Assembly: GCA_905178155.1 (NCBI GenBank)
Contig: CAJINV010000006.1
Span: forward strand, 3,030,860-3,094,859
DNA from: Amoebophrya sp. A120
Lineage: Eukaryota > Protista > Dinoflagellata
Length of the DNA: 64,000 nt
Reading direction: 5' to 3'
Position 1 is the first letter of the stretch; the number at the start of each line of letters is the position of its first letter. The position numbers were made by a program, and so were the translations under genes. The notes beneath the pieces were generated by a model. It did not search any database, was not told where the DNA came from, and was given only the letters and a program-made list of their open reading frames with translations. Of this stretch, positions 1 to 63,007 are shown piece after piece.

Positions 1-202
1 GAGTCAAAGGTCAAAGCGATGCGATGCGATACGTGTAGATCAAACTGGACTCTTCTTACTGGTCATGCAATACAGATTTTTTCCGAATCCGAAAGGTGCA
101 ATACGAGGTGCGTCGGGGGACGTTGCTACACCAATTCAATTCAATCCGAAGACAGCATCACAAGTTGTAATCTTCCAGACTCAGACATTTTTGCAATCCA
201 TA
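1..202. mobile_element. Introner family B, right part, apparently nested in a family A element
   Basis: Ends ttccagactcagacatttttgcaatccATA, followed directly by family A internal sequence. Confidence 0.7.
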
Positions 203-348
203 GTACGAGTTCGAGTAGCAAACAATTGCAACATAAATTGGCATGACAAATGGAACTTGCCATGCTGATATAGATCGAGATTGAGAAGGAGAATTGTCTT
301 GCATGATTGCGATTACTTTGTACGAGTCGGATGCTTTTGCGCAGGATA
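203..348. mobile_element. Introner family A, right part
   Basis: Ends tacgagtcggatgcttttgcgcaggATA; gcatgacaaa motif. Confidence 0.7.
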
Positions 349-1111: not shown

Positions 1112-1934
1112 ATATGCTGCGAAATAAAAGCGTGAAAATAAATTCGCTGATTACTTACTTTTCTATAGACTTGCCGTTGTGTTTGATCCACCAACTATCA
1201 TGCGTCACATACCAGAACTTCAACCTGTAGGACTAGGTACATTACACGACCCCGGCTGTTGAACACGCCAGCCGCTCCGCGCAGTGAGGGTTTTAGGATT
1301 TATTAAGGGATTTCGACAGCACTTTTTAGGTAATTTTTTTCAACGTGTTACCAGAATCAGACGCAGCTCCGCATGACAGCAGGTTTTTCCTGCCATGCGA
1401 ATCGAACCTGTGATGCTGCTCAGTTGTCGAAGGAACGATATTTCAAGTACATGGCGTCACGGTCAGACAATGGAGAGAGAGGACTCTACCCGGGGTAATA
1501 AGTAGACTGATCCAGAAGAGCGATCATGGCCCGGCGTTTAATTGCCCCGCTTGGGAGTCGAGGTGTTGATGGCGCGAAATGTGGCAACAGGTGAGTGAAA
1601 GAAGTGATGAAGCAGTGCTGTCAAACGAGATGAAGACGGAGCGCTGGCCACATACCAGCGCCATGAGAGGTTTTTTTCAAGAAGTAGATAGATCCTGCAT
1701 GGTGCAGGAGCGTTTTGGTTTTGTTAATTTTTTATGGTTTGATTTTTTGCTATTGGTTCCTGGTCCTGCAGGGGTGCAGGAAGACAGCAGAATATACATG
1801 TACAAGTACTTGCACCTACTCGCACGTCGTGATTGAAGTAGCAGAAATTTTTTTGATGAGTTTATAGTATGACAAAAAAGGGCTAGGACAAGTACTAAAC
1901 TGTAACTACGACCATCTGCGGTCTCTATCAAACT

Positions 1935-4900
1935 ATGCGTGCGTCTGCCTTCTTTTCCAAAACATTGCTCGCCAAAAAAGCGGCGGCGCCCGGTGCAGTG
2001 GCGCCCCACGTTGCCTCGGAATGCCTGTCACCCCGTAGCAAGTTACTGTCCTCCGGCACGACCACTACGTCGTCAGGCGGCAGCTGTGGCACGACAAGCG
2101 GCAGGAGTCCCACCAGAACAGAAAGTGATGCTGGGGGTTCTTCTACCACTGGAACAAAACAAGTTTCTGCCTTTGATTCCACCGAAGACGAATTCTTTGC
2201 TCGCAATAGTACCGCAACTACCGGTAGCAGCACGACTACAAGGAGTAGCAGAACCGCATCGCCGCTGGGTGTCGTAACCCGATCAAGTTCCTCCCCGGGC
2301 AAAACGAAGCTGGAAGAGATTCGCGATGCGGCTCGGCAACGGAGAGAAGAAAGGCGGATCAGCGTGTCGTCGACGTCTGCGAGTAGTACGACAAGCCCCC
2401 TTGCCCTCTATGAGAATATGCACAACTCCCATGTGCCCCTCATTTGTCATGCCAAAGCCCCAATTCAATCGCTGCGTTGTCAGACTGTTTGCATCACAAA
2501 TTCAGGAAGCGCAAGCAGTACTACTTACACCAGGCGCAAGATGAACTTGTAATGCACAGGCTCGATGTGTGTTGGTGTTTGTATTGCTGTTCGTGCCATG
2601 CAAATGAGGGGGAGGGGGAGTTGTGCACTCGCATACCCTCCGGAGCAGGGGCAGAAGTGGAACAACAGCATCAACAACTTCGACCCCGTCACCGTCCTCT
2701 GAGTTACGATATAATCCTGCTCTTCAAGGCGCAGCGGAGGACGCAGGTACTCTAATGTATTATTCGTATTTATTTTAGATCACAGGAAGAAGAAAACCAC
2801 ATGCAAATCCGTTCTTGAATGATCATCCATCGGTTTTTGTTTTTTTTAGCGGTGCTGGACGAGTATTTCAATTCTTTTATTTCGGTCTAGAAAAATCACA
2901 ATCAGCCTCCTCCGCCGGAACAACGGCCGCTGTCGCGTCGGCGCAAGAAGAAGAAGGACGACAGCTAAAAAACGTTGGAGCAGCGGCAGGTAGAGCATCT
3001 GTGCAGCAGACCCCAGAAGTGCTACGTACGGAAGACCTTTCGACGTTCAAGGCGGAACTACACGGCGCCAAGGGTCCGGAATTCCTTCAAGAACGAGAAC
3101 CACAACAGCTGCATGATCCGAAGACAAAAAAACTCAACGCTGCACCACCACCACCACCGCAAGAGTTTTTACTTGGCCAGGAAAATGTTGATGCGCGGGA
3201 ACATCTTCAACGTGGTCCAGATACAGAAGCTCCGCTGATGCTGGAAAACTACCTGCTGCGACCGCACTACCGCGTCCTGCCATCGTTTGCTACTCGACGA
3301 CGCGAAGCAGAAGTAGATGTTGACCTAGGGCAACAAGACCGAACAATCGTCGGGAGTTGTACTAGTGCTGACCACACGGCGGCTGGTGATCTCAAAAACA
3401 ATTACAACGACCCCGACGATATCTCACGAAAAAACTGTTTCACTGTGATGATTTTGCAAGTTTTGCATTACAAGTTTGTTCTGCATCACAGAGAAAATTT
3501 GCCATGCGAGATTCCTAAGGGAAAACAAAGCTAAAAAGCCATTGTCTTGCATGTGTAGCAAGACAAACACTTGTGAAATACATTTTCTGCATTACAAGTT
3601 TACAGTGAAACAGTTTTTTCTGGCGATAGACGAGCACCAGGAGCTAGTATCCTCGTCGTACTCGCGGGAGGTTTTCGTGACCACGGGAAGGAGCGGAAAA
3701 ACCTGTTTCACCGTATCGCAAGAAAAAACTGCTTCACTGTAAACTTGTGATGCACAAAATGGAACACAGAAATATTTGTCTTGCTACACATGCAAGAAAG
3801 TGGATTTTTAGCAGTGTTTTCCCTTAGGAAGCACGCATGGCAAGTTTTCTTGGTCATGCGTAAGGAACTTGTAATGCAAAAGTTGCAATCATCCTTACAG
3901 TGAAACACCTTTTTCGTACGATACACCGTGCACGAAGAAGAATACCTGAACGACGAGCGACGGCTCTATTTCGAGCGGCATATGAACTGCAAAAGCATCG
4001 TACTAGTATAAATTGCATTACAAATTGGCTTAGCATTACAAATTCAATCTGTAATGCGGATTTGCCTATAACAAAAAGATTTGTAATGCATAAATGCAAA
4101 ATTTAGTACGAGTGCGATACTTTTGCAGTGCATACGGCAGCAGAAGTACCAAATCCGCCCGCACGAAAACATCTGGTGCAGCTATGACAAGCACGGTTTT
4201 AATATGGCAAAAAACACAGGAGCACGATCTTCTAATTCTTGTCATCCGGCACTGCATCAGCATCCACACGTCGACCCAATCAATAACCGCGGTACAACAT
4301 CACTATCCGCGCCGAAACTAGACGACTTTTGCGAGCGGTACAAAGACGCTTCGCTCATCTTGCGGCTCCGCAGCGGCCTGATCGCTGGGTTTGACACATT
4401 GTTCGGGATCGGTGGTTTAACGGGAAGCACAACAGTATGCATCGCAAAAGTATCGTACTCGTACAGTGCACATCAATCATGCATAGACAAATCTCCTTTC
4501 CAAGCTAAATCAGCATGACAAACTCAAACTCCTCCGTCTGTCATGCTGAGCGAAGTTGTACTGGATTTGTTGTTCCTAGTACGATACTGTTGCAATGCAT
4601 AAGCGGCCGGCGGGGGACGAGAAAAAGTCTGCGAGAAACATCAGCAGCACAGCGGATTTTTTTTCAATAATCCACCTTCCGGTCTCATCCAGAGGTTTAA
4701 GCAGTTTCGAGCAAGAATGCACGAAAAAGTCTACGGATCTATCCTGTGCAAAAGTATCGTACTCGTACTAATTGCAGATATGCATTTACAAATTTCTTGC
4801 TCAAGTCAAAGCCGCATTACAAATTCTATTTCGCATGCTGGGGCAATTTGTCATGCGATTTGTACTAGTACGATGCTTTTGCAATGCATAGGATCCTTCA

Positions 4901-5707
4901 AACAGCAAAAGTTCGGAGTTCTGGAGAAAAACAACTCCTTGACGATGCCGCTCACGCACTTCTGCCCCAAATTATGCAAGAAAAAAACTTCTGTGTAGGT
5001 GCAAGTGTAAGTCTGTGATGCAGAAAATGGAAAACAGATACAACTGCCATGCCAGTTGTAGACACCCATGAAGTATATAGAAATCCTCTTTTCGTGTGTG
5101 TTTTCAAGTACTAAGTAGTACTAGTAGGAGTGCATGAAAATAAACTTTCTGTGTCAGCATAGTGCGGAGGAAGTTGTTTGTTGTCATGCTCTCTCACAAC
5201 TCGAAGACAATGACGCCTCCACTAACACAGTTTTTTCCTCGGATACAAATGGCTTCTCGGCCATTACGTTTCCCGTTATTTTTCCGGTGTGGTAGATTAT
5301 TTCGCATCTCCGTCCGGAACAAATGCGGACGATCCGGAAATATCAATTGCAAATATGTCTGGGTCTGGAACATGGCAATCTGTCATGCCAAATCTGAATC
5401 ATACAAAAATCTGTGTTGCAGGATTACCAAAAGCTGGCCACTTTTCACCAAGTGGGTAGGGCGTTTCTCATGCAGAATAGGCATGATAGAGGTCTCACAG
5501 AATCTGTCATGCTAGGTTCTGCATTCCAGACCTCATGCGTCATGTAACACCTGCGTCACAAGTTTGCATCTTTCCAGACCCAGACATATTTGCAATGCAT
5601 AGGAAAAATCTTTAACGGGAACAAGATTTGGATTTCTACCTGCTTCCTCGCCGCAGCGGTATCCAAGAGAAAAAGATGAAAGCTGCGTTTTGACGTACTC
5701 GTATTGA
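1935..5707 (+). CDS. Hypothetical protein, Ser/Thr-rich N-terminus; 8 introners plus one GT-AG intron (2747-2890)
   Basis: Continuous frame from ATG 1935 to TGA 5707 once elements and one DR each are removed (...HEEEYLNDERRLYFERQQKYQIRPHENIWCSYDKHGF...). Confidence 0.8.
2409..2635. mobile_element. Introner family D (227 bp)
   Basis: TIR tatgagaatatgcacaactcccatg...gagggggagttgtgcactcgcata; DR ccctc. Confidence 0.9.
3420..3628. mobile_element. Introner family F (209 bp)
   Basis: TIR tatctcacgaaaaaactgtttcactgt...acagtgaaacagttttttctggcgata; DR gacga. Confidence 0.92.
3714..3923. mobile_element. Introner family F (210 bp), opposite orientation to 3420
   Basis: TIR tatcgcaagaaaaaactgcttcactgt; DR caccg. 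Confidence 0.92.
3981..4134. mobile_element. Introner family A (154 bp)
   Basis: TIR tatgaactgcaaaagcatcgtact...agtgcgatacttttgcagtgcata; DR cggca. Confidence 0.92.
4436..4601. mobile_element. Introner family A, diverged (166 bp)
   Basis: A-type TIRs; decayed DR aacag/agcgg; frame restored. Confidence 0.8.
4740..4890. mobile_element. Introner family A (151 bp)
   Basis: A-type TIRs; DR ggatc. Confidence 0.92.
4973..5245. mobile_element. Introner family C, diverged/expanded (273 bp)
   Basis: tatgcaagaaaaaaactt...acacagttttttcctcggata; DR caaat. Confidence 0.85.
5341..5601. mobile_element. Introner family B (261 bp)
   Basis: TIR tatcaattgcaaatatgtctgggtctggaa...ttccagacccagacatatttgcaatgcata; DR ggaaa. 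Confidence 0.92.
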
Positions 5708-7244
5708 AAACATGAGTTTTTACTAAAAAGTGCGCATCTGTATTTTTATGTTGTACAGCATGCAACTTGTTGACGATTATGTTATGCGCCTGATGGTCAT
5801 GGGCATGCTCTAATGATAGAAACCACGTGAGCTGCGAGAGGTAAACTTCTGTGAGGCACTTACTACCACCGAAAGAGCGCAGTTTTTTGTCTGCATACCC
5901 GGCGGCTGAAAATAGCGAACTGTCCAGCACACAACCGCTTTTCAGCAGCGACCCCCACTCGAGCAGGTGAGGAACAAGATAACCGTGCTGGTAGTTGTTC
6001 CTACTTCACTCAGCTTCTCACGACGGCGCCGCTCGGTGCTAGCAGCAGGACCTCCACGGGAGCTGCACCAAGAGCCCGCGACTTTTTCTCCTCCTGGGCT
6101 GCAACATCTAGGAATAATTCCGCGGACGACCAGTACGTCTCCCCTCCTGCGGGGGTCGTGCTGTCGTGCTGAAGTTGGATTTTGATTTGGAGTTGTACGC
6201 GAATATGACCACACAGTTCTTGTGCATTGCCTTGTAATTGAAAACGAAGCACTTACAGTTACAACATTTCTCGATAATTGAAGTAGTGTGCTCCTGTGAT
6301 TCGAGACATTTAATGAGCACGACGAGATCAAGATCAAGTTGAAGACGCCTGCAATGGTAGTCTACTTACCACTGGTACTGTTGTGGTTTGATGAATATGG
6401 AAGCTCGTTTTTCGTCTTCATCAAGAGCAATGATGACAGCGCGACGGCATACGCGAAGAAAAATATTTGATGAAGTAAGTAAGTAATTATAAATGGAGTA
6501 CGCGAGCAGGAACGTCGGCAGTAGATGGAGTAGTTGTAGGTCGGCTGCACTTGCTGGATACTCAAAACGCTGATGTTCATCTCCTGCTTGGGAACGTGCT
6601 TCTACTGTTTCCACCCAAGCGTGGTTCGTTGTTGCTGCGAAGATCATAAGAACTACAAGACCGCTTTGACAGGAGCTGTTCTCGCACGTGTTTTGGTTCT
6701 TTTCCAATTCGAATTCCAACAAGTACATAGCTTTAAAACTATATCCGTTCGAGCTGTTGGTCGCGGACGCAGGAGCAGAACTAGAAGCCACTGCACTACT
6801 TTGCATAACTTGCAGTACAACTCGAGGAACTCCATCACAAAGTTCGTTCTAATCCTCAATCGATTCTCCCATTACTCCTTCCTGACGACTACACTAGGGA
6901 CAGTGACAGATGATCACGCGGCTTGGAGATGCTCTCGGATCCGTCAGTTCGACAAAGATAGAGTTTCTACTTCTACTTCTATCACACGACCATGATCGAT
7001 CAACAGAGCTCTATTCACTACACTAGCCAGTACATAATCTATCAGCGACATCTCTTTGTCTTATTCTCGGCGTTTTCTTTCTTTTGTTTATCGGCGCAAC
7101 TTGTAGAAGTGTCTGGTCGTACTGGAAAGACTTATGAATAAAAGTTATCATGTGTGTCTTTTCTCTGATGTTTTTCCGTCCATATGAAGATACTAGCATG
7201 TAGTTACAATAGCAAGATTGGAAAGAAAGTTTTATCACAAGAAG

Positions 7245-11277: not shown

Positions 11278-13057
11278 GTGCGCAAACTCTTTCCCTTCTA
11301 CCACACCTTCGAAATATCCGTCGACCCCGTTTCATCTGGGAAGAAGAAGTTCCTTCCTGTAGTCGAGAACCTGATCGATGAAAACACCTACGACAGCCAG
11401 CGGAACCGCGGCGCCAAGAACGCGAGAATCGTCCGCGTTTTCGAGCGGAACTATTTTACGAAGGCGTTTCTGTGGGATGTGCGGATGGAAGACTTGGCTG
11501 CGTCGTGTACTTCGGCAACAACATCGGGGATGACGATGGACCACGACAGTCGTGTCCGAAATAATGGGTCATCCAGCAGTCGTTCTTCAACAGCCTTTGC
11601 GTTGAGTGCTGCACTGGGCAACGGAACAGGTGGACCTAACACGTCACCAACAACTTCCGGACGTCGGATCACCGCAAACTCTTTGCCGGACCGGGAGCGC
11701 AGACTCAGTGAGTACCCGGAAAACCTCCCCGCGGGTCCCCCTTTATGACGCGCTCAGGTGTTACAATGTCAATCGTTGCAATAGAATATGGAAATCTGTG
11801 ATGCAAGAGTGCATGATATAGCCAACTTTCATAGGATCGCGCAGGACAAGTTCCGGCGCCCCAAACCCCACTGCAATTATCTGGCGAAATTTGTATTTCA
11901 GAAAGTGGAACGCCCTGCGAGTCTGTCATGCTCATCCCGCAAGACAAACCTCAGTTTCTGTGGTAACCGATCTGAGATTGTAACGCCTGAGCGAGTTATA
12001 CCCTTCGCCGGTGTTTTCTCCCGGCCCCATCAAGTTTGATCCACCTCCCAAACGACCGCCGTGTAGTACGAGCTGCAAGAACCCCAGCACCCCCGCAAGA
12101 ACAGATTCCTACAACAAAAAACACCTGGAACACGACCTTGCGGACGACCCGGGGTTTACGAATGGGATTCTTCCCCCTGAGTATTTCGAGGAAGACGAGA
12201 AACAACTGCCGTGTGGGGCTCCCTTTATACCTATTAGGAACAAGGACGGCACGATATTATTGCGACAGACACGACAAAACGTGCATCCGAGCTGCAGCCG
12301 CGAGGAGGAAGAGAACAGCCACCATCAGCAGCCTCGCCCAGCAGAAGATGCGACTTCGGGAGGAGGGGAAGAAGAAGTGCTGCGCTTGGTTGACTGTCGG
12401 GGAAATGACGTAGTTCGCGCCTGGGATGACGATTTCATGCACTTCGAAGACCTGCCTCCCGAGGCACAGGAGCTGGTTCCCATGCCGGAGATTCTTTTTG
12501 CTTCGCTGGGTCGTGGAAATAAGAGAAAGCGACGCAGAAGTGGGGCGTCATCTCCTTCTTCGTCCGAAGAGCGCTCGTTCTCGTCGGATCGCAGTAGCTG
12601 TAGTAGTGGTTCCGAGAGGATGGAGCAGAAGATCAGGAAGAAAAAACACAACTACACAATTGACAAACTTCCGAAGTTTGTGTTGCCAGACCACATGAAG
12701 ATTCGCGAGTTCGGAAAATTGAAGGGCCAGTTTGGGTATGAAATTCGAAAAATCATACGTCGGATGGGTTTCAGGACTGAGAAAACCAAAAGAAAAAGAA
12801 CCTGTAGGTACTTCCTACTCGTCGTGCAGTTTGTCGTGCATCAAGGGGTCGCTCGGCCCGCGCACCTTTGCAGAGCCTGGCGAGGAGCGCCGTTCTTCCA
12901 TCTGGTATATATAATTGTGCACCATAAACAAGCAAAAGCAATGCTGCTCGTGCATGATGCTCGGAGGTGCTCATATGTCGGTGTGAATGAAAAACAGAAG
13001 TTGATAAATCCGGGTCATTCTTGTTTTGCAGACTTGGAAGCAGCAGGCAAGCAATGA
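11278..13057 (+). CDS. Hypothetical protein; 1 introner; both ends uncertain
   Basis: ORFs 11278 and 12011 fuse in frame after removing 11744-12000. Confidence 0.6.
11744..12000. mobile_element. Introner family G (257 bp)
   Basis: TIR tatgacgcgctcaggtgttacaat...attgtaacgcctgagcgagttata; DR ccctt. Confidence 0.92.
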
Positions 13058-30949: not shown

Positions 30950-30999
30950 AACAAAAGTGGCGGTATACGTGTAGTTGTACACCGAAATTTTTCACTCGA

Positions 31000-34107: not shown

Positions 34108-34248
34108 TATCCTGTGCAAAAGTATCGTACTCGTATTGCAGTCATGCATTACAAATCTTTTTCTTACGGTAAATCCGCATTACAAATTTCATTTCTCATG
34201 CTTAGGAAGTAATGCATTTATACGAGTGCGATGCTTTTGCAGTTCATA
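34108..34248. mobile_element. Family A element in apparently non-coding DNA (141 bp)
   Basis: A-type TIRs; DR cctcg; no convincing flanking gene. Confidence 0.9.
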
Positions 34249-45075: not shown

Positions 45076-45204
45076 TATCCTGTGCAAAAGTATCGTACTC
45101 GTAGTAATTGCATTTATGCACTACAAATCTGCTTCTAAAGGTAAATCAGCATTGCAAACAAATGCAATTTATAATATACTAGTACGATGCTTTTGCATTT
45201 CATA
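45076..45204. mobile_element. Introner family A (129 bp), absent from the main gene copy
   Basis: DR ttagt/ttggt; empty site at 55766-55770. Confidence 0.9.
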
Positions 45205-45255
45205 TTGGTTTCTACCTGGCGATTTTTGAGCTGACGTGCCAAACCACGAGCACCC

Positions 45256-45417
45256 TATCCACTGCAAAAGTATCTGATACCCGTAAGTATAAATGCAAGT
45301 CTTGCATTACAAATCTCGTTCCCAAGGCAAATCAGCATGACAAATTGCATTTCTCATGCTGAGCAAAAATGTAATGCAATCCATACTAGAGCGACACTTT
45401 TCCTTTTGCAGTTCATA
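45256..45417. mobile_element. Introner family A, shared with 56086-56240
   Basis: DR caccc/cacct in both copies. Confidence 0.9.
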
Positions 45418-45518
45418 CACCTGCTCGGGCTACAAGCTGTCGCGGGACATTCTGCACAGCCTCGCTTTTTTGGTGATCATCGTGGCGGTAAACTTCAACC
45501 TGCACTCGCTGGGGATTC

Positions 45519-49775: not shown

Positions 49776-50462
49776 GACAATGGCGCGTTCATCTCACGTT
49801 ACAACAAGAAGCCACGAGAGCAGATCCACATCATTGCTTATCCAAATGTTAACTTACTATAGCCGGATGACAACTGTGTCTGTGAGCCGGGAAAAAATCA
49901 TGGAAATTGAATATAGCGAGTTCTTGCCCGCCTATGCTGGAGATAGACCGTCCAGCATGGAGCAACTCGCTGTGCATCTTCACTTGCAGTCCAGTAGAGA
50001 CCATACATAAGTACTTCTTGTGTAATGTGTTCTGTTCATCCGCCGGCGCAGCCCTTCTGTCACCAAGACGTAGCTTGCACAGAACATCCTAAGTGTTGGC
50101 AACATCGTCCTGATCTATTGCCAGACCGGTTTCAACATATCACAGCTACGTGTCTTTCGTCGTGTGCCATGATCCTGTTTTGCTGGTCGTGTCTTCCGCA
50201 GAATTTGGTACTATTGCTGTCGTGTGGTCTTCTTCCGAACAAGTTGTCAAGATAACCACGGTAGAGGAATAAATTCGAACGATGGGAGGTCTAGAGTTCC
50301 TGGGCAGCAGGAAGATCAGCGATAAGTACTTTGGGGGACGACTTGCTTTTTTTTTCCCGCCTTTTGCGCTCGTCGGAAACATAAGTGATGGTTGGGAATT
50401 CATATCTAGATCAGAAGTGTTGAAAAGATAGCTGCTGCTGGTCGGGAAAAATCAAACTTATA

Positions 50463-53400
50463 ATGCTGTCCCCGCAGGGGCACGGCCGTGGGCAGCGCTA
50501 CAACTTTCGCGTGCGGCGGAAAGATGTTGATTACCTGCGCGCTCATCTTTCGTGTGGAGCCGGCGGAACAAAAGCGGCACGTCGTCCTCTCCACGTTTCT
50601 TCGAGCCTCAGTAGTTGTGCTCTGGCCCGGTGTTTGCTTTTTGTTCTCTTACAGTTATTCATCTCGTGTACCACGACACCTGTTTCAGCCCTAATTGAGC
50701 CGGTTTCTTTTCCGGCCGAGGGTGTGCAGGACTACTGGACCTTGCTGCTTTATGACGTGGGGCTGCACGCGGGAGCGAAAATTCGCATAAAGTTGTATCC
50801 TGTGTAAAAACGACGTCCACACCCCACCGCCAAGTTGGGAAGTCTGCAACAAGAAATCTAGAAGTTTTGGGAGTCTTCACGCATGAAAAGTTCTTTCTCT
50901 CGGTATTGTAGTTGTACAGGTTAGAAGCTGCAAGGACACCCGCATCGCGTCGAATCGGTCTCCGTAGCCTGCTTCCAGCATTGCAAACGCGAACACACGA
51001 TCGAAGTAGGCTTCTCTTATGGGGATGCGCATTTTTAGAAGCATTCCTGTAATTGCAAATCTGCATGACAACTCTGGGATGGGGACGTTTACGTTTTTGA
51101 ACAGGATAAGCTGGAGTCCGAGAACAGCCTGAACAGCGAGGACGCAGAAAGTAGCAACTGCTACTTGCTACTCGTGACCCACGAGCAGTGGTCGAAGTGG
51201 AACAATGAAAGCAACGAGCCTTTTATCCAAGAAAAAAACTGTGTTAGTGTAACTTTGTGTTGCAGAAAATGCAAAACTGTTACTCTTGTCATGCTGGACA
51301 TGCATCAGAGGCAACTTTCGTACGTGTTTCCACGTTCTAGCTGCGCATGACAGGTTTTCTGTGTCATGCAGAGCAAACTTGTGATGCTATTCCTCCAAGA
51401 GACTTACACTCACACACTTTTTTTCCTGCACACGTTTCTCCCTGCCCGAGGGACAACTGAATTCATACCTGCAGACCACCTGGCGCAAGCCGCTGAAGTT
51501 GAGTAGCCGGACAAACAAGGACCCATCGATCGCCATCAAAAACGAGTTTCTTTTCCACCTCCCGAAGACCGCGGGGCGCGGGAGTAGGCTACAGGCAAAC
51601 CGGTACCATTTGGGGATTCTCAACCCGGACAAGAAAATCTTGAAGCTCAAGCATCAAAAGGAAAAATCCCCCCTCCCTACTTATATCGAAAAGGAAATCT
51701 GTGATGCTGGATTTGCGTACACAAATCAGATTTGTCTTGCAGTAGAGGACTGCACGCAGATCGCCCGCCTAGTTAGGGGCCTTTTGGTGTAGGCGCCTAG
51801 CATGGTGGACGGCTGTCCTGTAATCCTGACAGCATTACAAATCACCCGCATAGAGTGGCGAAGAGCCTGGATTTGCCTCCTCGCAAGACAGACAGGATTT
51901 GTGGCCACAAATCTGCATAACAAATTTTCGGAGGCATACCTTTTCGATGTGGGGAGGGGGGATTTTTCCTCTCAATATCAAGGGCTACGTAGAGATGCGC
52001 AATCCGGTCACTGTGCCAGCAGCGGAAAATATCCAAGAACAAAACACTGCACGGTGTAACTTTTTTGGAGGAACAGCCTTGCAAATTTGCCTGGCATGAC
52101 AGCAAAAACCTGGAATGCGCAGATACCATAGTACGTGAAAACGCCCTTTAATGGACCCTGCGATGCATGCTAAGCATGACAGAGACAGACGCAATCATCT
52201 TGCATGTGGAGCATCACGAATTTACACTAGCAACGTTTTTTTCTTGGATAGAAAAGGCTCTACTTGCCGGTCGGGAGATGAAATTATCGCTGGTGTCCTC
52301 TTCTCGTCCCGCTTACAGTCTTGTTGATGACCCGTCAAGTACATCAACATCCTCTCAAGGCACGAGCACGACGGCCGCGGGGCTCTTCGGTACTACACCG
52401 CTCGTCGTCGCGAGGGAGATGACAAAGAACAGGAACAACCCCACGTATGAACTGCAAAAGTATCGTACTCGTATAAATGCATTGCAAATTTTCTCAGCAT
52501 GAGAAATAAAATTTGTAATGCTGATTTGCGTTGACAAAGAAAGTTGTAATGCAAGACCTGCATTTATACGAGTACGATACTTTTGCACAGGATACCACGG
52601 GCGCGCTGACCATCCAGCAGGAGCTGCTATGAAAGTGAAAAAAGCCCCCACCTCATATTCAAAAGACAATTCCTGTTGCTGGATTTGTGTACACAAATGA
52701 ACTTTGTATTGCCGCAAGAGCTCCTTGGCGGCATACTTATTCTAAGACCATTTGGAGGGTACAACTCTTCCGGCTACCAGCTGAGCACGAGAAACAAGTC
52801 CGACGTAGGCGAACACGCATGACAGACTCGCTGCACAATGCGCCACATGGAGGCCGTTTGCCTGTACGCAAGACAAAGCAGATTTGTGGTCACAAATCAG
52901 CAACACAAATTTGCTTTTTGATATGGGGAGGGGAGATTTTTCCTCACAATAGTTGCTGCCCAAGGTGTTCCAGACCTGGCAGTACGTAAACGCGTGCACG
53001 GGGCTGTTCTATAACACGCTCAGGTGTTACTAGAATGTCAAACGTTACAATAGCGTCTGGAACTTGTCTTGCATGATAAGCATGACAGAATCGTAGAGCA
53101 TTCCAAATTGTGCAATACAAATTTCCACAGATGCTTCTAGTGCGGTTTGGTTTCTCCGAAACTTGTCATGCGCAATCCTGCGGGACGAGTCGGAGTAGGC
53201 CTCCAGATGTTGCGCATTTATATATTGCAACACAAATTCAGATTCTATGGTAACCGATTTGAGATTGTAACACCTGAGCTGGTTATATGTTCCTTTTCCT
53301 TCTTATGGGGGCGTCAGGATTGAAATCGTCAGAGTTGAAATAGTTTGCCATGCATAAAATGCAGCCCACAAAGTGCCTGTCTTGCAGAGTAGGCAAGTGA

Positions 53401-56400
53401 GGCAGATTGTAAGCCTGTTGAGGGGTAGAAACTGAGCTGCTAAAGCAGCATGACAAAAGACGTCTTCCTTACCCAAACAGCATGAGAGACTGGATTTCGG
53501 GGCTACCCAAATTTGTCATGCGCCACTTGGAAACTGGGCTCCAACTGGCATCCGTTTTATGCATCACAAATTATTTCAACTTTGACGATTTCAATCCTGA
53601 CACTACCATACTTCTTTTCAGCACGAAGTGGCGGTTTTCGGACCAGTATCCTGTGCAAAAGCATCGCACTCGTAGTAATTGCGTTTATGCATTACAAATT
53701 TCTTTCTCAAGGCAAATCAGCATTACAAACTGAATTTGTAATGCTGGGGGAATTTGTAATGCAATTTCTACTACTACGATACAGTACTTTTGCAGTTCAT
53801 AACCAGCTGATCCGAAATGATCAGAGCGGTCTATCCGGTGCAAAAGTATCGTACTCGTATTGCAATCATGCATTACAAATCCTTTTGCTACGGTAAATCT
53901 GCATTACAAACGGACAAAAATCTATGGAGAAACATCATCAGCGGCATTAGTTACGGCACAGCAAGATCATCATCATCATCTTCTTTTTCTTCTACATCCT
54001 CTACATCTCTATTTCCAGCTCGAAATACTACTACTACTACTACTACAACATCATCTTCATCTTCCTCCTCAGCAGCGATGTCGTTTCAATCAACAACAGC
54101 AAGTGATAGAATACCGATCCAGGCTTTAATGAGACTACAAGGTCGCAAAAGGATATTCTAAGGCGACAGCGCCGAGCAGAATAAATTCATCAAATCTGCA
54201 TTACAAATTTTATTTCTCATGCTGAGGAGATTTGTGATGCATTTATACGAGTACGATACTTTTGCAGGTCATACGCTCTGCAAAACGACGAAAGTATCCC
54301 AGAATACCGCCGCGCGCAGTACCTGCTGTACCGCTTTCGGGGAAACATCCCCCGAGGCTACCTGCACCTCGTGCTGACAACCGCGTTTTTTTACAAGGCC
54401 TTCTCGAACTACCTCAACGTGGTTCACTACGAATACTTGGAGCAAGACTTTGTGAAGACGCAGGCGGTATGCATTGCAAATATGTCTGGGTCCGGAATAA
54501 ACCTGTGATACTGCGCTGCGCATAATTGAAGCGCTTCCGCTTGCAATGGTAGCCAAGCATGACATGTTTTTCAGACGCCTTTTTAATGTCTAGCACGCAT
54601 TAGCATTACAAATCGCGTTTTTGCATGACATAGGAAGCTCCTCTTCCGCTGCGCATGCAACACAAATTTTCCAGGAATGCAAGACACGCATTACAGGTTC
54701 CACTTTTTCAGACCCAGACATCTTTGCATTTGATAGGCGGAGCTGGCCCGAGACCAGGAGCGCGACAGTGCGGACGGACGCATCCCGCTGTATCAACTGT
54801 AAAAATGTCTGGGTCTGGAGGAATTCATATTTGTCATGCTTGTCTGGCATGACTCTTAAATCTGTCATGCACGAAACCCAAGAGCTCCGTTATTCTGTGA
54901 TGCAGAAGCGCAGTTTGTCATGCAGAATAGGCAACACCTAGAAGGAGCTCAGAAACTTGTCATGCTGAGCCAGCATCTGTAGCCTCATCATGAGACGCCA
55001 CCCAGCATCACAAGTTTCCAGACATCCAGGGATTTTTACATTTGGTACACTGGTGCACTTGACATCCAAGGACGAACGAAAAGCCGCAAGCACTTCTTAT
55101 GCAAGAAAAAAACTGTGTAAGTGTAAGTCTGTGATGCAAAAAATGCAAAACAGGTACACTTGTCATGCCAGACACCCATGAAGTCCTCTTTTCATGTGTG
55201 TTTTCACGTACTAGCATTGCATGACAGGCTTTCTCTCTCGTGCAGAGCAAATTTGTAATGCTGGCACTCCAAGAGACCTACACTAACACAGTTTTTTCCC
55301 TGGATACTTCTACTTTTTCATCTAAGCCTGAAGCAGACTATAGCAATGCCCCGGATGAACATAGTTCCAACATCGCACTCCAGATTTCCGAAACCGCGGT
55401 ATTGTTCCAGAAATTTCTCTTCGACTTTGTCCCCAAACTGTTTGAAAAGATCGAGACGATTGTGGAACTCGAGATTTTGTTGTTGTTATCGCAAGAAAAA
55501 ACTGCTTCACTGTGAACTTGTGATGCAGAAAATGGAATGCAGAACGATTTGCCTTGCTACACCTGCATAGAACAACACTGGAGTTTCAACCCGCGCATGG
55601 CAAGTTTTCTTTGTCATGTAGAACGAACTTGTGATGCGAAACTCGCAAAATCGTTACAGTGAAAGAACACTTTTTTCTCACGATAGTTGTTTGCCCTGGG
55701 TTGGAAGATTCTGCGGCGACGGCTGAATATGACAGAAATTCGATTTCTGCTCGGGATCGGCGTAATTAGTTTCTACCTGGCGATTTTTGTATCAAGTGTA
55801 AAAATGTCTGGCTCTGGAAGAATGCAAGATTTGCCATGCATATTTTGCATAACCCATGATGCCTGTAATGCATGACCGAGCATCACAGATTTTTAAAGGG
55901 CCTCCTGATGCGTATTCCGCATGAGAAACGCCCAGTCCGCGTAGCACAAACTGCACTCCTCTTGCTGGTCATGCAATACAGATTTTTTTTACCTTCCAAA
56001 GACAGCATCACAAGTTGCAATGTTCCAGACCCAGACATTTTTGCATATTGATACTTTGAGCTCACGTGCCAAACCACGAGCACCCTATCCACTGCAGAAG
56101 TATCTGATACTCGTATAAATGCAAGTTTGGCATTACAAATCTCGTTTCCGAGGCAAATCAGCATGACAAATTGCATTTCTACTCATGCTGAGCGAGAATG
56201 TAATGTAATCCATACTAGTACGACACTTTTGCAGTTCATACACCTGCTCGGGCTACAAGCTGTCGCGGGACATTCTGCACAGCCTCGCTTTTTTGGTGAT
56301 CATCGTGGCGGTAAACTTCAACCTGCACTCGCTGGGGATTCTATCAAATGCAAAAATGTCTGGGTCTGGAAAGCTGTGATGCTGAGTTGTGCATGATTGA

Positions 56401-58261
56401 AGCGCGTTCAAAGGCAGCCAAGCATGACAAGTTCTTCAGACGCCTGCTGATGCCTAGCACGCATTACAAATTACGTTTTTGCATGACAAAGGAAGCCCCT
56501 CTTTTGCTGCCCATGCAACACAGATTTTCCACGAATGCAAGACACGCATTACAAGTTCCACTTTTCCAGACCCAGACACTTTTGCATTTGATAGATTCAA
56601 GTAAGCGACAACACGGTCACCTCCGTCCTCAACGCCTACGGGCCGGGCAACCCTGTCCCGGAGCTGCCGCGGTTGTATATGCATTGCAAAAGTATCGACT
56701 AGTGCTTGTAGTAATCGCATTACAAATTAGCGCAGCATGATGACAAATGGAATTTCTCATGCTGATTCACCTTGGGAACGAGATCTGTAATGCATGACTG
56801 CGATCAGAAGTACGAGCGCGATGCTTGCTTTTGCGCAGGATATTCCACCGAAAGCGGCAAATGTACTGGCAGCTCCGGGTGATTTTTCTGTACTACTATC
56901 AGAATGAAGAATCCCCCCTCCCCATATCAAAACGAGTTTTCTGATGCTGGATTTGCGTACACAAATCAGATTTGTCTTGCTGGCGAGGACAGAAGACCCA
57001 TAATATCGAGCCTGAGGAGACAGGTTTTGGCCTTGGCGCTTTGCATGACAGACGTCCACACTGTAGGCGCAAGAGCATGACAAACCGCCCTTAGAACGCG
57101 GCGGAGCCTGTGGAATTGGAATTGCCTTCATGCAACACAGAGACGATCTGTGGTCACAAATCAGCAACGCAAACTTTCGAAAACGTGCCTTGTCAATTTG
57201 GGGAGACGGGATTTTTCCTTTTGATAACTACCTGCTACTGCCCACGGTGTTGCTGTTCCTCTCCATCACAGTCATCGGCGGGGGGACGTATGACACCGGC
57301 GGCGTGAACAGCTCGGACTGGCAGAGCTACTGGATTTACGTGGCCTTGAAGGAGTTCGGGTCTTGGCTGCTTCTGGCAATGCTGGCGTACAGTTTTCGGC
57401 CGGACGGATCAAAATTCATGATTTTCTCGGAGGTGGTGAATGAAGAGAATAACGGCACGGCCGGCTTGAATAGCGAAGACGATTCGGAAGCGGGGGAGGA
57501 ATTCGAGCAACAAGAGGGAGTTCTAGAAACTGCGCCAGCAACAAATATATGAAATGCAAAAGCATCGTACCAGTATGAATTGCAATACAAATTGGTATTG
57601 GCTCAGCATTACAAATTGAATTTGTAATGCGGATTTGCCCTGACAAAAAAATTTGTAATGCATAAACGCAATTAGTACGAGTACGATACTTTTGCACAGG
57701 ATAAAATACAAATACAGCCGTCGCATCCAATGGAGGACGAGACCACCACCAACCGGCAGGAGGGTCATCTACTATCGTGAAAAAAAAAGTGTTACAGTTA
57801 CACACCCTAATGGGGGACAAGCAAGACAGACTACCTCTGTCATGCAGGAAATGCTTGCCAGCCTCATTTCATTCGTGTTTTCCTTTATAGTCTGCGAACC
57901 TTCACAGGTTTTTTTGGTTTTCTTAGCCATGTCGAGCAATTTACTTTGTGATGCAGAAACTCCAACAACTGTGTAACTGTAACGCTTTTTTCGTTCGATA
58001 TCTACGTCTAGTAGAAGAGTAGTCGAGGGGACGGTTGTTGACCCTTTTCCAGCGGACTCGTTCTCATTATGCTCTGCAAAAGTATCGTACTCGTACTCGT
58101 AGTAATCGCTGTTATGCATGACAAATCTCGTTACTGAGGTACTAAAACAGCATTACAAATTTCATTTGTAATGCTAAGCCAATTTGTGATGCAATTACTG
58201 CTAGTAAGTACGATGCTTTTGCAGTTCATGCTCATCTACCGCGAACTACGATGCGGAGTGA
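50463..58261 (+). CDS. GOST-family seven-transmembrane protein (GPR107/GPR108/GPR180-like); 22 introners
   Basis: Signal peptide, luminal domain ending GYVEMRNP, LTIQQELLPKVF, HLVLTTAFFYK, ILLLFALGWKILRRRL, FLYYLLLP, LAYSFRP; one open frame after removing all 22 elements. Confidence 0.85.
50796..51108. mobile_element. Introner family E (313 bp)
   Basis: E-type TIRs; DR agttg/agctg. Confidence 0.9.
51224..51432. mobile_element. Introner family C (209 bp), ends ACA
   Basis: C-type TIRs; DR ccttt/cgttt. Confidence 0.9.
51652..51977. mobile_element. Introner family I (326 bp)
   Basis: catcaaaaggaaaaatccccc...gggggatttttcctctcaata; DR tcaag. Confidence 0.9.
52030..52250. mobile_element. Introner family C, diverged (221 bp)
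   Basis: tatccaagaa...ttcttggata; DR gaaaa. Confidence 0.88.
52446..52594. mobile_element. Introner family A (149 bp)
   Basis: A-type TIRs; DR ccacg. Confidence 0.93.
52628..52951. mobile_element. Introner family I (324 bp)
   Basis: I-type TIRs; DR gctgc/gttgc. Confidence 0.88.
53010..53287. mobile_element. Introner family G (278 bp)
   Basis: G-type TIRs; DR tgttc. Confidence 0.9.
53304..53610. mobile_element. Introner family J (307 bp)
   Basis: tatgggggcgtcaggattgaaatcgtca...tgacgatttcaatcctgacactaccata; DR cttct. Confidence 0.92.
53647..53801. mobile_element. Introner family A (155 bp)
   Basis: A-type TIRs; DR accag. Confidence 0.92.
53832..54273. mobile_element. Introner family A with ~280-bp internal insert (442 bp)
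   Basis: DR cggtc/cgctc; insert 53911-54191 flanked by 16-bp duplication aaatctgcattacaaa. Confidence 0.88.
54468..54735. mobile_element. Introner family B (268 bp), absent in duplicate copy
   Basis: B-type TIRs; DR ggcgg. Confidence 0.92.
54791..55047. mobile_element. Introner family B (257 bp), absent in duplicate copy
   Basis: B-type TIRs; DR cgctg/cactg. Confidence 0.88.
55098..55306. mobile_element. Introner family C (209 bp)
   Basis: C-type TIRs; DR cttct. Confidence 0.92.
55487..55685. mobile_element. Introner family F (199 bp), absent in duplicate copy
   Basis: F-type TIRs; DR gttgt. Confidence 0.92.
55790..56053. mobile_element. Introner family B (264 bp), absent in duplicate copy
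   Basis: B-type TIRs; DR ttttg/ctttg. Confidence 0.92.
56086..56240. mobile_element. Introner family A (155 bp)
   Basis: A-type TIRs; DR caccc/cacct. Confidence 0.9.
56342..56593. mobile_element. Introner family B (252 bp)
   Basis: B-type TIRs; DR gattc. Confidence 0.93.
56678..56842. mobile_element. Introner family A (165 bp)
   Basis: A-type TIRs; decayed DR ttgta/ttcca. Confidence 0.85.
56897..57226. mobile_element. Introner family I (330 bp)
   Basis: I-type TIRs; DR actac. Confidence 0.9.
57548..57703. mobile_element. Introner family A (156 bp)
   Basis: A-type TIRs; DR aaata. Confidence 0.92.
57773..58000. mobile_element. Introner family K (228 bp)
   Basis: tatcgtgaaaaaaaaagtgttacagttacaca...tgtgtaactgtaacgcttttttcgttcgata; DR tctac. 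Confidence 0.92.
58068..58230. mobile_element. Introner family A (163 bp), ends ATG
   Basis: A-type TIRs; DR ctcat. Confidence 0.9.
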
Positions 58262-59073: not shown

Positions 59074-62000
59074 ATGCCAACGCCAAATACCGCGACCGCG
59101 TGGGAGTACCCACTCTCAAAAAATGAAAAGGAGCGCATGATTGCGCACGCTTACCAGAATGAAATACAGTTGGCCAATATGGATTACAGAAAAAGTTGTA
59201 GATCGTAACAGTACATGAACACAAGATTTTGGTTTTTGCACGAATTGATGGAAGCTCAGCATGGTGAAGACTTGAATTTGTAATGCGGGGGACTCACGTA
59301 AGACTTGTCCTTGTGCTGTAGTTGTGATGCATATAGTACTTGCATCAATTACAACTACGAGTTGTACAAACGAGACAACTTTCTTTGCCCTGGATACCCA
59401 ACGAAGAGAAGAGGATGGACGAGACAGTGGTAAAACGCAAAATAGTTTTGTTTCTGATGCGCTGTATGCATGACATAGACATTCAGGTTCATCTTGAACA
59501 TGCTGCCTGCGCATGACAAGTTGGTTCAATACATCAAAACTCTATCAGATACACACACTGAAGACAATGAACGAAAAGTTGGAGCTCGAGCTAGATTACG
59601 CCTTGCAAAAGTATCGTACTAAGTAGAAATAGCATCACAATTTTTTCCAGAAGGAAAAGTTGAATTTGTAATGCCAAACTAGGTAAGAAGCCAGATCTGT
59701 CATGCTGTGCTGCTATATGTACGAGTGCGATGCTTTTGCATTCGATACAGAAAACACCACGAAGCGGGCGAAGCGACAGCATTTTCGTCTGTCGTTTGGT
59801 GAGCCGATCGAAAAAGGAGAGATGATCGACAATCCGGACCTCGAAAAGGCCTACGACGAGCTTGATACGTTTGAAGGGGTGCCGAGCAAAGCGGAAGAGA
59901 TAAAGGAGCAAGAAACTACCACGGCAATAAAAAATTCCCAGCCGATAAACAGCCCTGAGCCGAAAATGGGAGCAGCTACAAATGGAAACAGTACTTCCAG
60001 CACGCCCGCGGCGAATGGAGGTACAACTACATGCGCAGGCGGTGGAAGTACTACTTCATCTAGTAGCTCATCTTCCTCCTCATCGTCATCTGCAGCGCCC
60101 TATGAACTGCAAAAGTCTCGTACTCGTCGTATAAATGCATGACAAATTTCCTCAGCACGAGAGATAAAATTTGTAATGCGGATGTACCTTAAGATAAAGA
60201 TTTGTAATGCATGAATGCAATACGTATACGAGTGCGATACTTTTGCACAGGATACGTCCGATAGCTGGACCCTAGTGGAGGATGAGGAAACATCAAATGT
60301 GCTGCGTTATCGTAAGGAAAAATCCCCTCTCCCCATATCGAGGAGAAAATTTGTGATGCTGATTTGTGATGGTGTTGATGACCACAAATCAGCTTTGTCT
60401 TGCGTGTTGTGGTGCAGCGAGTCTGTCATGCGTTTTCGCCTATCTCAGATTTGTTTCTCATGCTCAGCTGCTAGCCGGATGCATAGGCATACCCAAATGG
60501 TCAGCTTAGAATGTGCCGACAAGCTGCTCTTGCTGCAATAGAAAGCTCATCTGTGTACACAAATCCAGCAATGCAAATTATCTTTTGAACATGGCCATGG
60601 GGTGGAGGCTCTTTTCACTTTGATATGCCTGGTCCCACGCTGTCGTCAACGTCATCCTCCTCGAGTCGTAGTACTACTACGACCGCCGGCACCAATAGAA
60701 CATCATCTCCATCACGAGCAGCCGGGGGCGGGCCAGGGGCAAATAAAAACGGCGCCGGGGCAGCAAGTGACGTGGTGGTGATCCCCAAATCAACGCTGTA
60801 CTACATGTATGCGCTGCAAAAGGTATAAGTTGAAGTATCGCACAATGGAAATTTTCTCACGAACACAAATGTCGCAAGTTGTCATGCTAGAACAGGTAGA
60901 AAGTTATAGATTTGTCATGCCTTATTGCAAATGCAGTTACTACGAGCAGGAGCACGATACATCAACTTTTGCAGACGATAACATGGTCTGCGCCGGCTGC
61001 ATAGCGGGGCTATTGCTGCTGGTCTGCTGTGTGTTTGTGGCGGTGATGATATGACAGTACACAAAAATTCTTCCTCGTCGGCCCCCCTCATAGTCATGTG
61101 TCATGCAAAAGCACAAGGCTAGCCGCGCTGGCGTTGCCTTGTTGTAGCGTCATCTCGCATCTTGGAATTTTTGCGAAGTGAAGTTGCACTTCACTTGCAA
61201 CATCACCGTAAATACGCACAGGTACAGGAATAGGCAGCTCTGCATAGTTTTAATTCCACGCAAGGACGGGGAGGGGGGATCATGCTTGTGCACTCTCATA
61301 GACCGTTCTGTACTACTACAAACCCGACACGCTCTTCGCGTCTATACCTAGTACAGGTTCACCAGCTGCTGGCCATCAAACTACAAGCACGATAAACCAG
61401 GAAGCACTCTCGGACGCCAACACGCGAGCGCGGTATGAAAGCCTCGGGTTGGAAATCCTCAAAGTGGAAATAATTTGTAATGCAAAAAAACGACGCCAGT
61501 TGAAGCGCCACTTGTAGGCGGGGCATGACAAATTTCCCGGACACTTAACGCACGTCTCCTGTCATGCTCATGCAGGTTAAGGGAAAGGGGTGCCTTTCTG
61601 TCGTGCTAAGCAGCACCTCAATTCTTCGCCCCTAGCAGGATAATAGCCGGCCTCCATTGCGTCCTCTGCAATACAGTTTTTTTTGCGTCGCATTTCATGC
61701 ATCACAAATTATTTCCACTTTGAGGATTTCCATTCTGAGGCTTTCATACGCGGAGTGTCCCGAATTCTCCGAGGTTTGTTATGACCCGCTCAAGCGTAGT
61801 TACAATCTCAGATCGGTTACCATAGAGTCTGGGTTTTGTATTGCATGATGAGCATGACAGACTCGGACAGCATTCCCCGTTCTGCAATACAAATTTCGCC
61901 AGATTGTGCTGAGGATTGGGACTCCATAACTTGCCATGCGCAATCCTATGAGAGGTGGCTAGATAATGCACTTCTTGCAACACAAATTCCAGATTCTATT

Positions 62001-63007
62001 GTAACGTTCGGGATTGTAAGACCTGAGCAGGTTATATTTGTACCGAACGAAGACGCGGTTTCTGACAACGCGGACTACTTGAAAGTAAAGCACGAGATCG
62101 AACACCAGCAGATGTTGAGTAGTACTAGCAAAGTAGTACTAAGAACAGATGCAACAATAGACGAAGAGCAAGAAGACTCGCCTGCGCCGCTGTTCCCCTC
62201 CATCGATCCGCCCGCGAACCAGAACACGTTTCAACCCACGTGGAGCATAAAAGGCGGTTCGTATCAGAAGGGAAAAAACGGCTTCGGAGGCTCCTCTGCG
62301 TACGAATATGCATTGCAAAGGCATCGTACCTCCAGTAGTGATTGCAATACAAATTTGCTTAGCATGACAAACGAAATTTGTAATGCTGTTTTACGTCAGG
62401 AAGGAGATTGGTCATGCAAAACAGCAATTACTACGAGTGCGATACTTTTGCAGAGCATAACGAATTTTCCGGTACGATCCAGCAGGAAGTGGATCGCGCT
62501 CTCACGTTTTTCGGGAAGGGCCAGTGCATATGAATTGCAAAAGTGGTCTTGCAGCTATACATTACAAATCTAGTTGTTAAGGGAAATCCGCATTGCAAAT
62601 TCAATGTGTAATGCTGAGCCAATTTGTTCTTCTTGGTTTATTCTTGTTTTGCAATTTATAGTATACGTAGTGCGATAGCGATACTTCTTTTGCAAAGGAT
62701 AGCGCAATGAGTCGGCGGACCGGCTCTACGCCCTCCTGCGCAGCAACCTGACCGATGTGGTGTGGCGGCCGAAAATTTTGCGGTATGGCACGGAAAAAGT
62801 GTTACAGTTACACACATAGTCTATGCAGGCCAAGCAAGACAGACAAGCTCTGTCATGCCGGATATGCATAGGAGCCCCGTTTCATAGGTGTTTTGCCGTA
62901 GGATTTCTGCATTGCAAGTTTTCTCTCTCATGCAGAGAAGTTTGTGTTGCTGAATTGACTACAAATGTGTAACTGTAACACTTTTTTCGTGGGACATGCG
63001 GGTATAG
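59074..63007 (+). CDS. Hypothetical single-pass membrane protein; 11 introners plus GT-AG intron 59430-59548; start uncertain
   Basis: MPTPNTATAWEYP ... MVCAGCIAGLLLLVCCVFVAVM (TM) ... LTDVVWRPKILRV* after element removal. Confidence 0.7.
59178..59396. mobile_element. Degenerate family C introner (219 bp)
   Basis: tatggattacagaaaaagttgt...acaactttctttgccctggata; DR gccaa/cccaa. Confidence 0.75.
59597..59747. mobile_element. Introner family A, diverged (151 bp)
   Basis: Starts TAC; DR tagat/cagaa. Confidence 0.8.
60101..60254. mobile_element. Introner family A (154 bp)
   Basis: A-type TIRs; DR cgccc/cgtcc. Confidence 0.9.
60308..60625. mobile_element. Introner family I (318 bp)
   Basis: Opposite orientation to 52628; DR tgcgt/tgcct. 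Confidence 0.88.
60808..60980. mobile_element. Degenerate family A introner (173 bp)
   Basis: tatgcgctgcaaaag...cttttgcagacgata; DR acatg. Confidence 0.82.
61050..61300. mobile_element. Degenerate family D introner (251 bp)
   Basis: tatgacagtacacaa...ttgtgcactctcata; decayed DR gatga/gaccg. Confidence 0.78.
61434..61748. mobile_element. Introner family J (315 bp)
   Basis: ~50-bp TIR; DR cgcgg. Confidence 0.92.
61780..62036. mobile_element. Introner family G (257 bp), opposite orientation to 11744
   Basis: G-type TIRs; DR tttgt. Confidence 0.92.
62307..62459. mobile_element. Introner family A (153 bp)
   Basis: A-type TIRs; DR acgaa. Confidence 0.9.
62529..62701. mobile_element. Introner family A, diverged (173 bp)
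   Basis: A-like TIRs; DR gtgca/gcgca. Confidence 0.82.
62784..62996. mobile_element. Introner family K (213 bp), ends ACA
   Basis: K-type TIRs; DR tgcgg. Confidence 0.9.

Follow-up and report, generated by a model that had tools for sequence, protein, structure and literature searches.

In the window, as we call the 64,000-nucleotide stretch of Amoebophrya sp. A120 DNA analysed here, one gene carries two copies of the same inserted element (family F) in opposite orientations, which raises the question of how both can be lost from transcripts of a single strand. A sequence-only reading of this DNA had proposed that removal cannot depend on a strand-specific donor, branch point or acceptor within the element, that a symmetric TAT/ATA hairpin is the likely signal, and that insertion in either orientation favours DNA transposition over reverse splicing.

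The inverted pair and its element class

The pair, its host gene and a third family member are located as follows.

3420..3628, + strand: F copy 1, TAT...ATA, 209 nt, with the duplication GACGA at 3415-3419 and 3629-3633
3629..3713, + strand: exon of 85 nt separating the two F copies
3714..3923, - strand: F copy 2, 210 nt, reversed with respect to copy 1, with the duplication CACCG at 3709-3713 and 3924-3928
1899..6172, + strand: host gene, a stop-to-stop frame of 2178 nt once spliced, with nine introners (at 2409, 3420, 3714, 3981, 4436, 4740, 4973, 5341 and 5660) and one GT-AG intron (2747-2905)
55487..55685, - strand: third member of family F; the corresponding site in the paralogous gene is empty, with a single GTTGT at 44991

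As had been read from the sequence, F 3420 and F 3714 are inverted relatives 85 nt apart in one gene, with 84% identity as reverse complements (175/209 aligned columns). Each copy has its own duplication and the outer ends share none, and the two are therefore separate insertions; a composite element spanning 3420-3923 was ruled out by the lack of a common duplication at its outer ends. Local hopping was unsupported, F 3714 being as close to the copy at 55487 (86%) as to F 3420 (84%). Similarity between copies of family A does not track distance. The last 19 nt of the 85-nt exon agree with the F terminal repeat at 16/19 positions. Pfam returned no match for two exons of the host gene.

Scans combined with manually called boundaries gave 78 TAT...ATA elements (mean 224 nt, range 129-442 nt) that occupy 27% of the window; inverted-repeat TAT...ATA candidates numbered 60 in the window vs 0-2 in each of five shuffles. 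The ends of 57/78 elements match the pattern TAT, 6-8 nt, AAA, and those outside it belong mostly to families H, G, K and J, with a shorter A run. Flanking 5-nt target duplications are perfect at 54/77 elements and agree in 4/5 letters at 18/77; none extends to 6 nt (0/77 window elements), and their letters stay close to background throughout the five positions, both in the window and in the loci listed from a second assembly (described below). GT/GC-AG borders are available at any register in at most 1/74 window elements, and a retained element would break the frame in 77/78. The elements are dispersed and short, with terminal inverted repeats and a target duplication of fixed length, which are traits of MITEs. 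Viral contigs gave no match to them, and the repeat-bounded stretches of 0.7-8 kb in the 519 kb of second-assembly loci listed included one 815-nt copy, with no transposase evident by eye. The elements are short and non-coding, with inverted ends and 5-nt duplications, and are likely to be non-autonomous DNA transposons, introners of the Amoebophrya A120 type.

The window holds a pair of paralogous gene copies with six insertion differences, and the empty site carries one 5-mer in 6/6 cases. A 5-mer that is single at empty sites and doubled at insertions points to a staggered cut in DNA. Reverse splicing gives one orientation and no target-derived duplication; because both orientations and target-derived duplications are seen, plain reverse splicing is excluded. 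The proposed preference for DNA transposition is thus borne out by the 5-nt duplication, the six single-5-mer empty sites and the presence of both orientations.

Orientation of the copies and their loss from RNA contigs

Besides the F pair, five pairs in other families had been described as reverse complements of each other. With the terminal 30 nt removed, reverse-complement and direct alignments were compared, and all pairs aligned better as reverse complements and are inverted: F (0.82 vs 0.58), G 11744/61780 (0.81 vs 0.59), E 405/21722 (0.68 vs 0.59), I 52628/60308 (0.77 vs 0.61), A 7947/52446 (0.85 vs 0.65) and C 27916/29142 (0.86 vs 0.55). Host genes had all been placed on the + strand, which agrees with the longer frame at 69/76 junctions once the element and 5 nt are removed. 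Four of the seven exceptions sit in the Isy1 gene, which is on + by Pfam (E 2.5e-24). The four RNA-defined GT-AG introns are all on +, as are the 2/20 distinct exon pieces that Pfam named (Isy1 and, with a score under the curated cut-off, RRP4). For E 405 and 733, where the two strands offer frames of about the same length, + is the putative host strand; 34108 and 46401 lie without clear gene context. One long frame and the two G copies illustrate the arrangement.

50424..58259, + strand: with 22 introners, some in each orientation, taken out, a single frame of 2355 nt is restored; its last five joints are in RNA contigs
11744..12000, + strand: G copy; an RNA contig joins 11738 to 12001 (element + 5 nt)
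61780..62036, - strand: G copy facing the other way, missing from the RNA contigs as judged by piece arithmetic

Orientations in the window were 13:10 for family A, 5:9 for C/F, 5:7 for B, 5:1 for H, 3:2 for E, 3:1 for I, 1:2 for G, 1:1 for K and 1:1 for J, a total of 71 copies with no orientation bias (p 0.78). These counts leave out 34108 (no gene context), 46401 (disrupted region) and 45256 (a duplicate of 56086), as well as 5660, 59178, 60808 and 61050, which have no family assignment. A search of a second assembly with one family-A end motif gave at least 131 loci (519 kb), without overlap with the window's unique DNA; those listed contain 437 unique elements, of which 310 were strand-called and 287 assigned to a family. 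The scanner recovered 61/78 window copies with zero false calls, and the strand caller, a codon model checked on the window, was right for 56/57 at the threshold used. A family A bias in the loci listed (48:83, p 0.003) was due to the motif-picked copies (20:61; others 28:22), and because the bias lies in them these copies were excluded from the orientation count. With search-selected copies omitted, the window and the loci listed gave 277 copies and an orientation p of 0.80, in a test with power 0.97 at 65:35 and 0.63 at 60:40; nearest relatives shared orientation no more than shuffled ones. A strong bias, which would have spoken against the sequence-only reading, was not seen in these per-family counts, and the results support the view that orientation is unbiased at the family level.

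Removal was read from contigs of runs X1-X4, presumed to be RNA, which derive from one sample in one study and are unstranded, assembled and limited to majority forms. From these contigs 28 copies are absent, each with the element and 5 nt gone. By family orientation the absent copies number 13 vs 11, with 4 unassigned (A 7:4, C/F 1:4, G 1:1, I 1:1, B 1:0, H 2:0, J 0:1), so the loss of both orientations that the earlier proposal presupposed does occur. Between 56600 and 63640, 13 directly listed joints each skip the element length + 5, and at 62784 one joint takes the element together with an adjacent canonical intron. Six copies are absent by piece arithmetic: three in 56600-63640, plus those at 2409, 11744 and 15146. 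The contig between 3414 and 5900 measures 783 nt in two runs, the exact sum after removal of eight elements with 5 nt each, and this length indicates that both F copies are probably absent from the RNA. F and G are the only named pairs in which both members are RNA-verified (2/6). The X1-X4 contigs skip four GT-AG introns as well as the elements. Taken together, orientation-blind insertion and removal of A120-type introners are well supported. In a raw-read run from 2026 (X8), 77 partial reads fell on element ends and the genes were not covered.

Register of the cut

Identical repeats hide the border, which is therefore readable only at mismatched duplications. The register k, the count of upstream duplication letters kept, was read where the two 5-mers have diverged.

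61050..61300, + strand: old copy, duplication GATGA/GACCG; the joint from 61048 to 61305 is unambiguous and allows k 4 only (intron 61049-61304)
56678..56842, + strand: A copy, duplication TTGTA/TTCCA; joint allows k 4-5
59597..59747, + strand: A copy that starts TAC, duplication TAGAT/CAGAA; joint allows k 1-4
60308..60625, - strand: I copy, inverted relative to 52628 and 56897, duplication TGCGT/TGCCT; joint allows k 4-5
62529..62701, - strand: A copy in the opposite orientation; joint allows k 2-5, with the mirror register 1 excluded
59178: joint allows k 1-5
60101: joint allows k 3-5
5660 and 9836: k 2-5 and k 0-4, respectively, from piece ends only

Register 4 is compatible with 9/9 informative copies (7/7 joints and 2/2 piece ends) and is pinned by one, 61050; three copies rule out register 5 and three rule out registers 0-3, leaving 4. 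The chance of a fit to k = 4 is 0.003 for the seven joints, which the k = 4 hypothesis preceded, and the chance of any common register is 0.06 (7 copies) or 0.02 (9 copies). These fits lend moderate support to an intron of the form N-TAT...ATA-NNNN, with one duplicated letter at its 5' end and four at its 3' end. With the cut placed 1 nt ahead of the 5' arm and 4 nt beyond the 3' arm, the two ends would be read differently. Judging by one copy (62529), and with all window genes on +, the register appears to follow the transcript and not the polarity of the element. Among mismatched empty paralogous sites, 2/3 fit register 4. At 54791 the paralogue agrees with the downstream duplication copy, so that register 4 implies a coding change there.

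Over the 385 copies of the window and the loci listed, register 4 places GT/GC..AG borders at 10, and G at +1 is not enriched (123 vs 113 expected). The intron would end in AG in 40/385 of the same copies, a weak enrichment in the loci listed (35 vs 22, p 0.006) and none in the window (5 vs 5). In the accessible part of PMC7789003 the published border is marked unknown in a legend, and the legend of its Fig. 3 has sites variable relative to the hairpin. The published borders were placed by an aligner inside identical repeats.

Removal signal, rival explanations and known systems

As removal is blind to orientation, the signal has to be one of the features that the two strands share. To deny any strand-specific donor, branch point or acceptor, as the sequence-only reading did, is nevertheless too strong: since the terminal repeats show the same linear motif in both orientations, a donor-like motif may lie inside the element, and along the transcript the cut is not symmetric. 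The N-TAT start agrees with the four canonical starts (GTACTC, GTATAA, GTAAAA and GTATAG) at +2, +3 and often +4. Two observations count against a pure donor signal: the U run carried by the elements is missing from the four canonical acceptors, and the 5' TAT is no more constrained than the 3' ATA, each having changed 13 times in the 385 copies of the window and loci listed.

The elements are not fully strand-neutral after insertion. By family orientation, the exact search motif stands at the 5' end of the intron 61 times vs 20 in the loci listed. A variant at position 21 of family A occurs in 9/21 3' arms vs 1/18 5' arms in the window and in 19/65 vs 4/38 at the unselected end in the loci listed, and at position 15 of family B discordant copies number 13 vs 1; corrected for 147 columns, the p values are 0.07 and 0.03, respectively. 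It is the direction of the transcript that these arm variants follow, irrespective of which family end lies downstream. The family A variant gives a U.G pair and the family B variant an A.C mismatch, so that wobble pairing cannot account for the two together; transcription-linked mutation or selection on splicing may be the source of the polarity. Strand-biased words were absent from the window, and the loci listed have a GCG/TGCG skew.

Our preferred reading, which we consider likely, is that transposon-like introners insert into exons in either orientation, that both orientations are lost from RNA, and that removal probably uses one register set by the ends. For spread, a transposase or integrase supplied in trans would bind the ends, make a 5-nt staggered cut and insert the element regardless of transcription. 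On removal, the element and exactly 5 nt would leave and the original coding sequence would be restored, the length of the loss being observed and its register deduced from the joints. As machinery we lean slightly towards the resident U2/U5/U6 spliceosome, which would take N-U-A-U as a relaxed donor without needing G at +1; pairing of arm positions 8-15 would bring the intron ends together, and the 3' cut would be measured 4 nt from ATA with no AG required. Either orientation would work because both arms carry the same motif. More tentatively, splicing may dispense with a dinucleotide rule altogether, a U1-less spliceosome or a nuclease-ligase locking on to the inverted ends and cutting like a ruler tuned to the geometry of the transposase. 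Offsets of 1 + 4 would then equal the 5-nt duplication, so that any insertion, at any site and in any orientation, would be erased exactly from mRNA.

It is unlikely that the RNA hairpin alone is the signal, with a non-spliceosomal endonuclease and a ligase acting at fixed stem offsets as proposed for the nonconventional introns of euglenids. Several findings speak for it: pairing is seen in 90% of cells at arm positions 8-15 and in 98% at TAT/ATA, most copies fold end to end, and in 24/28 RNA-verified copies the first 30 nt share >11 expected pairs with the last 30. Both ends are kept in old copies, with terminal letters changed at 4/168 positions vs 15/140 for the duplication (p 0.003, or 0.15 if both duplication copies are counted), and the lack of a G+1 or AG requirement fits this explanation, as does U1 not being found in A120 in the part of PMC7789003 available. 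The arms, however, hold no excess of G.U over A.C (window 73:80; second-assembly loci listed 239:227 at 24 nt), the sense strand has no folding-energy advantage (35/73, window), compensated changes in TAT/ATA number 0/26, pairing at arm positions 4-7 occurs in only half of the cases, and the TAT:ATA pairing probability is <0.15 in 11/28 spliced copies folded with their flanks; these pairing tests would be weak if the copies are mostly young. The suggestion that the hairpin is the signal stays plausible; it is not borne out by G.U counts or by compensation at TAT/ATA, and two arm positions differ with transcript polarity. That the cut varies within the 5-nt duplication, the nine informative copies agreeing by chance, strikes us as improbable. 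The site variability in the Fig. 3 legend (PMC7789003, seen in part) favours it, as do the 0.06 chance of a common register for the seven listed cases and the poorer fit of 54791, but the exclusions at three copies on either side leave only register 4, and the published borders are aligner-placed in identical repeats and marked unknown in the legend.

Spread through an RNA intermediate, by reverse splicing or by reverse transcription followed by integrase insertion, is very improbable. A duplication of 5 nt would suit LTR-type integrases (3-6 nt) as well, and orientation alone does not exclude an integrase route because integrase insertion is orientation-blind too; one A120 introner family is reported to combine inverted ends with Copia/Gypsy-like, integrase-like frames. 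The single orientation and missing duplication of reverse splicing are, however, contradicted by the data, the five host letters of an excised intron are not passed to new sites, and the copies read gave no sign of an LTR, a primer site or a poly(A) tail. Barely conceivable is an IES-like removal from DNA in some stage, the joined contigs then coming from edited DNA. The RNA nature of X1-X4 is presumed and joints in the DNA-like run X5 are swamped by repeats, which leaves some room for it; yet the X1-X4 contigs also skip four GT-AG introns, and the X5 pieces among those listed extend into elements and across canonical introns.

Tens of thousands of introners are spliced without GT-AG, and apparently without U1, and the mismatched-duplication test makes the true border readable from existing RNA-seq. 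The fixed N-TAT...ATA-NNNN register of our preferred reading, if true, would correct splice-site tables for this genome, would explain how a transposon can fill more than a quarter of this DNA inside exons at little cost, and would show where lariats or circles should be sought.

The element class itself is already published. In the part of PMC7789003 available, the ends of A120 introners open with TAT and continue with about seven variable letters and a run of at least three A; the introners have short direct repeats (3-5 nt; 5 bp in the Fig. S19 legend), non-canonical borders and a length of about 220-240 nt, and lie in co-oriented genes. The window elements match this description in ends, direct repeats, borders, size and gene orientation. 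The same source proposes a hairpin and MITE-like spread, argues against general transposase mobilisation, and reports 83/89 spliceosomal proteins along with U2, U4, U5 and U6. Its accessible text does not mention element orientation ('strand' has no hits, and 'orientation' is used for genes only), and our results go beyond that text in the removal of both orientations, the constant 5-nt duplication with empty sites and the one register deduced here. In the article text and the supplements covered by a literature search, neither the orientation nor a fixed register of A120 introners is reported; orientation-blind insertion and removal and the fixed register were thus not found in print there.

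Introners of Aureococcus anophagefferens and of Polarella glacialis classes 2, 3, 6, 7, 8 and 10 occur in either orientation (bioRxiv 10.1101/2020.10.14.339549, seen in part). They share with the window elements the DNA-transposon type, inverted ends, target duplications and function as introns either way, but take GT/GC/GA donors and AG acceptors from the element or the duplication, whereas the window elements need neither G+1 nor AG. Polarella classes 6, 8 and 10 are orientation-biased in the same preprint, whereas no bias was detected in the window families. Nonconventional introns of euglenids, as far as PMC11282704 was accessible, have in common with the window elements non-canonical junctions, terminal pairing, a longer free 3' stretch and duplication-like repeats; they differ in pairing +4..6 with -8..-6, where the window elements pair +2 with -5, and in a pyrimidine|purine junction, where the junction letters of the window elements are flat. 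Among transposons covered by the available part of PMC10045372, IS3EU/GingerRoot have TA..TA termini, as do the window elements, but usually duplicate 6 bp and not 5, while the 4-5 bp duplications of Ginger2 match the 5 nt found here. MITE-derived introns of Fritillaria borealis, likewise described in the accessible part of PMC11282704, have inverted ends and duplications and are reported to be removed by the spliceosome; unlike the window elements, they keep preferred AG-AC/AG-AT borders.

Element starts, an internal motif and exon joints

Three introners in the window start with CAT in place of TAT (47440, 48777 and 51652), and in two of the three a G precedes the CAT, so that an intron cut at the inferred register would start with GC. 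A motif, GCAT(T/G/C)ACAAA, recurs in both orientations within many elements of the main families (e.g., 3463-3508) and is also found in some canonical introns, near 37455 and 59513. The motif is a candidate transposase binding site; alternatively, it may indicate that old introners account for some of the canonical introns.

The introner at 62784 directly precedes a canonical GT donor at 63002. In the assembled RNA contigs, a joint from 62782 to 63282 removes both this introner and the adjoining canonical intron; at register 4, the inferred cut that keeps four of the five upstream duplicated letters in the mRNA, such a joint would require either a 1-nt exon or splicing in two steps. One unspliced contig spans 62961-63311. 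Apparent canonical introns and introners are also present together in the gene for the splicing factor Isy1 (35933-38264), where four introners were located (36041, 36925, 37540 and 37764).

The exon immediately 5' of the second of two mutually inverted F-family copies (3420-3628 and 3714-3923) contains a stretch, 3695-3713, that agrees with the F terminal repeat in 16 of 19 positions and competes in folding with the second copy's own hairpin. This stretch may be a scar left by repair, or it may derive from an older copy whose end became exonised.

Probable nested and filled copies, and flank duplications

At the start of the window (1-348), a B-type right end lies at 202, and behind it comes the greater part of an A-type element, which ends at 348; in this arrangement one introner has probably inserted into another's left arm, and the start lies outside the window. 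Two other copies have unrelated DNA in their middle: an A copy at 53832-54273 (∼275 nt of such DNA) and, in a second assembly, an 815-nt K copy (locus L010, 6184-6998; ∼600 nt). Both begin near CAT-repeat runs, and the inner segments are probably captured or filler DNA. Longer flank duplications were observed at element ends within 15136-15300 (10 nt, in part shared with the end of 15146) and 34070-34275 (∼25 nt, near 34108), and are suggestive of repair by template switching.

Paralogous genes, other repeats and a second assembly

Two paralogous copies of one gene (44730-46330 and 54400-56600) differ by six insertions and have at least three in common. The gene appears membrane-protein-like by eye; the one exon searched gave no Pfam match. 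Part of the copy at 44730-46330 may be an assembly artefact, because it contains repeated blocks of 60 nt as well as an N gap.

A direct repeat of 47 nt, at 30953 and 32111, flanks 1.1 kb of GC-rich DNA containing 12-nt tandem arrays in both orientations; this region (30953-32157) is a further repeat or mobile element and has no relation to the introners. The window ends in 11-nt tandem repeats of the ACACACCCCAG type (63750-64000).

The second assembly carries the same introner families at different sites. An RNA run from 2026 bearing the same species label (X8) matched B-type ends only and none of the genes. Taken together, these results indicate that the families are common to strains and that their insertion sites differ.
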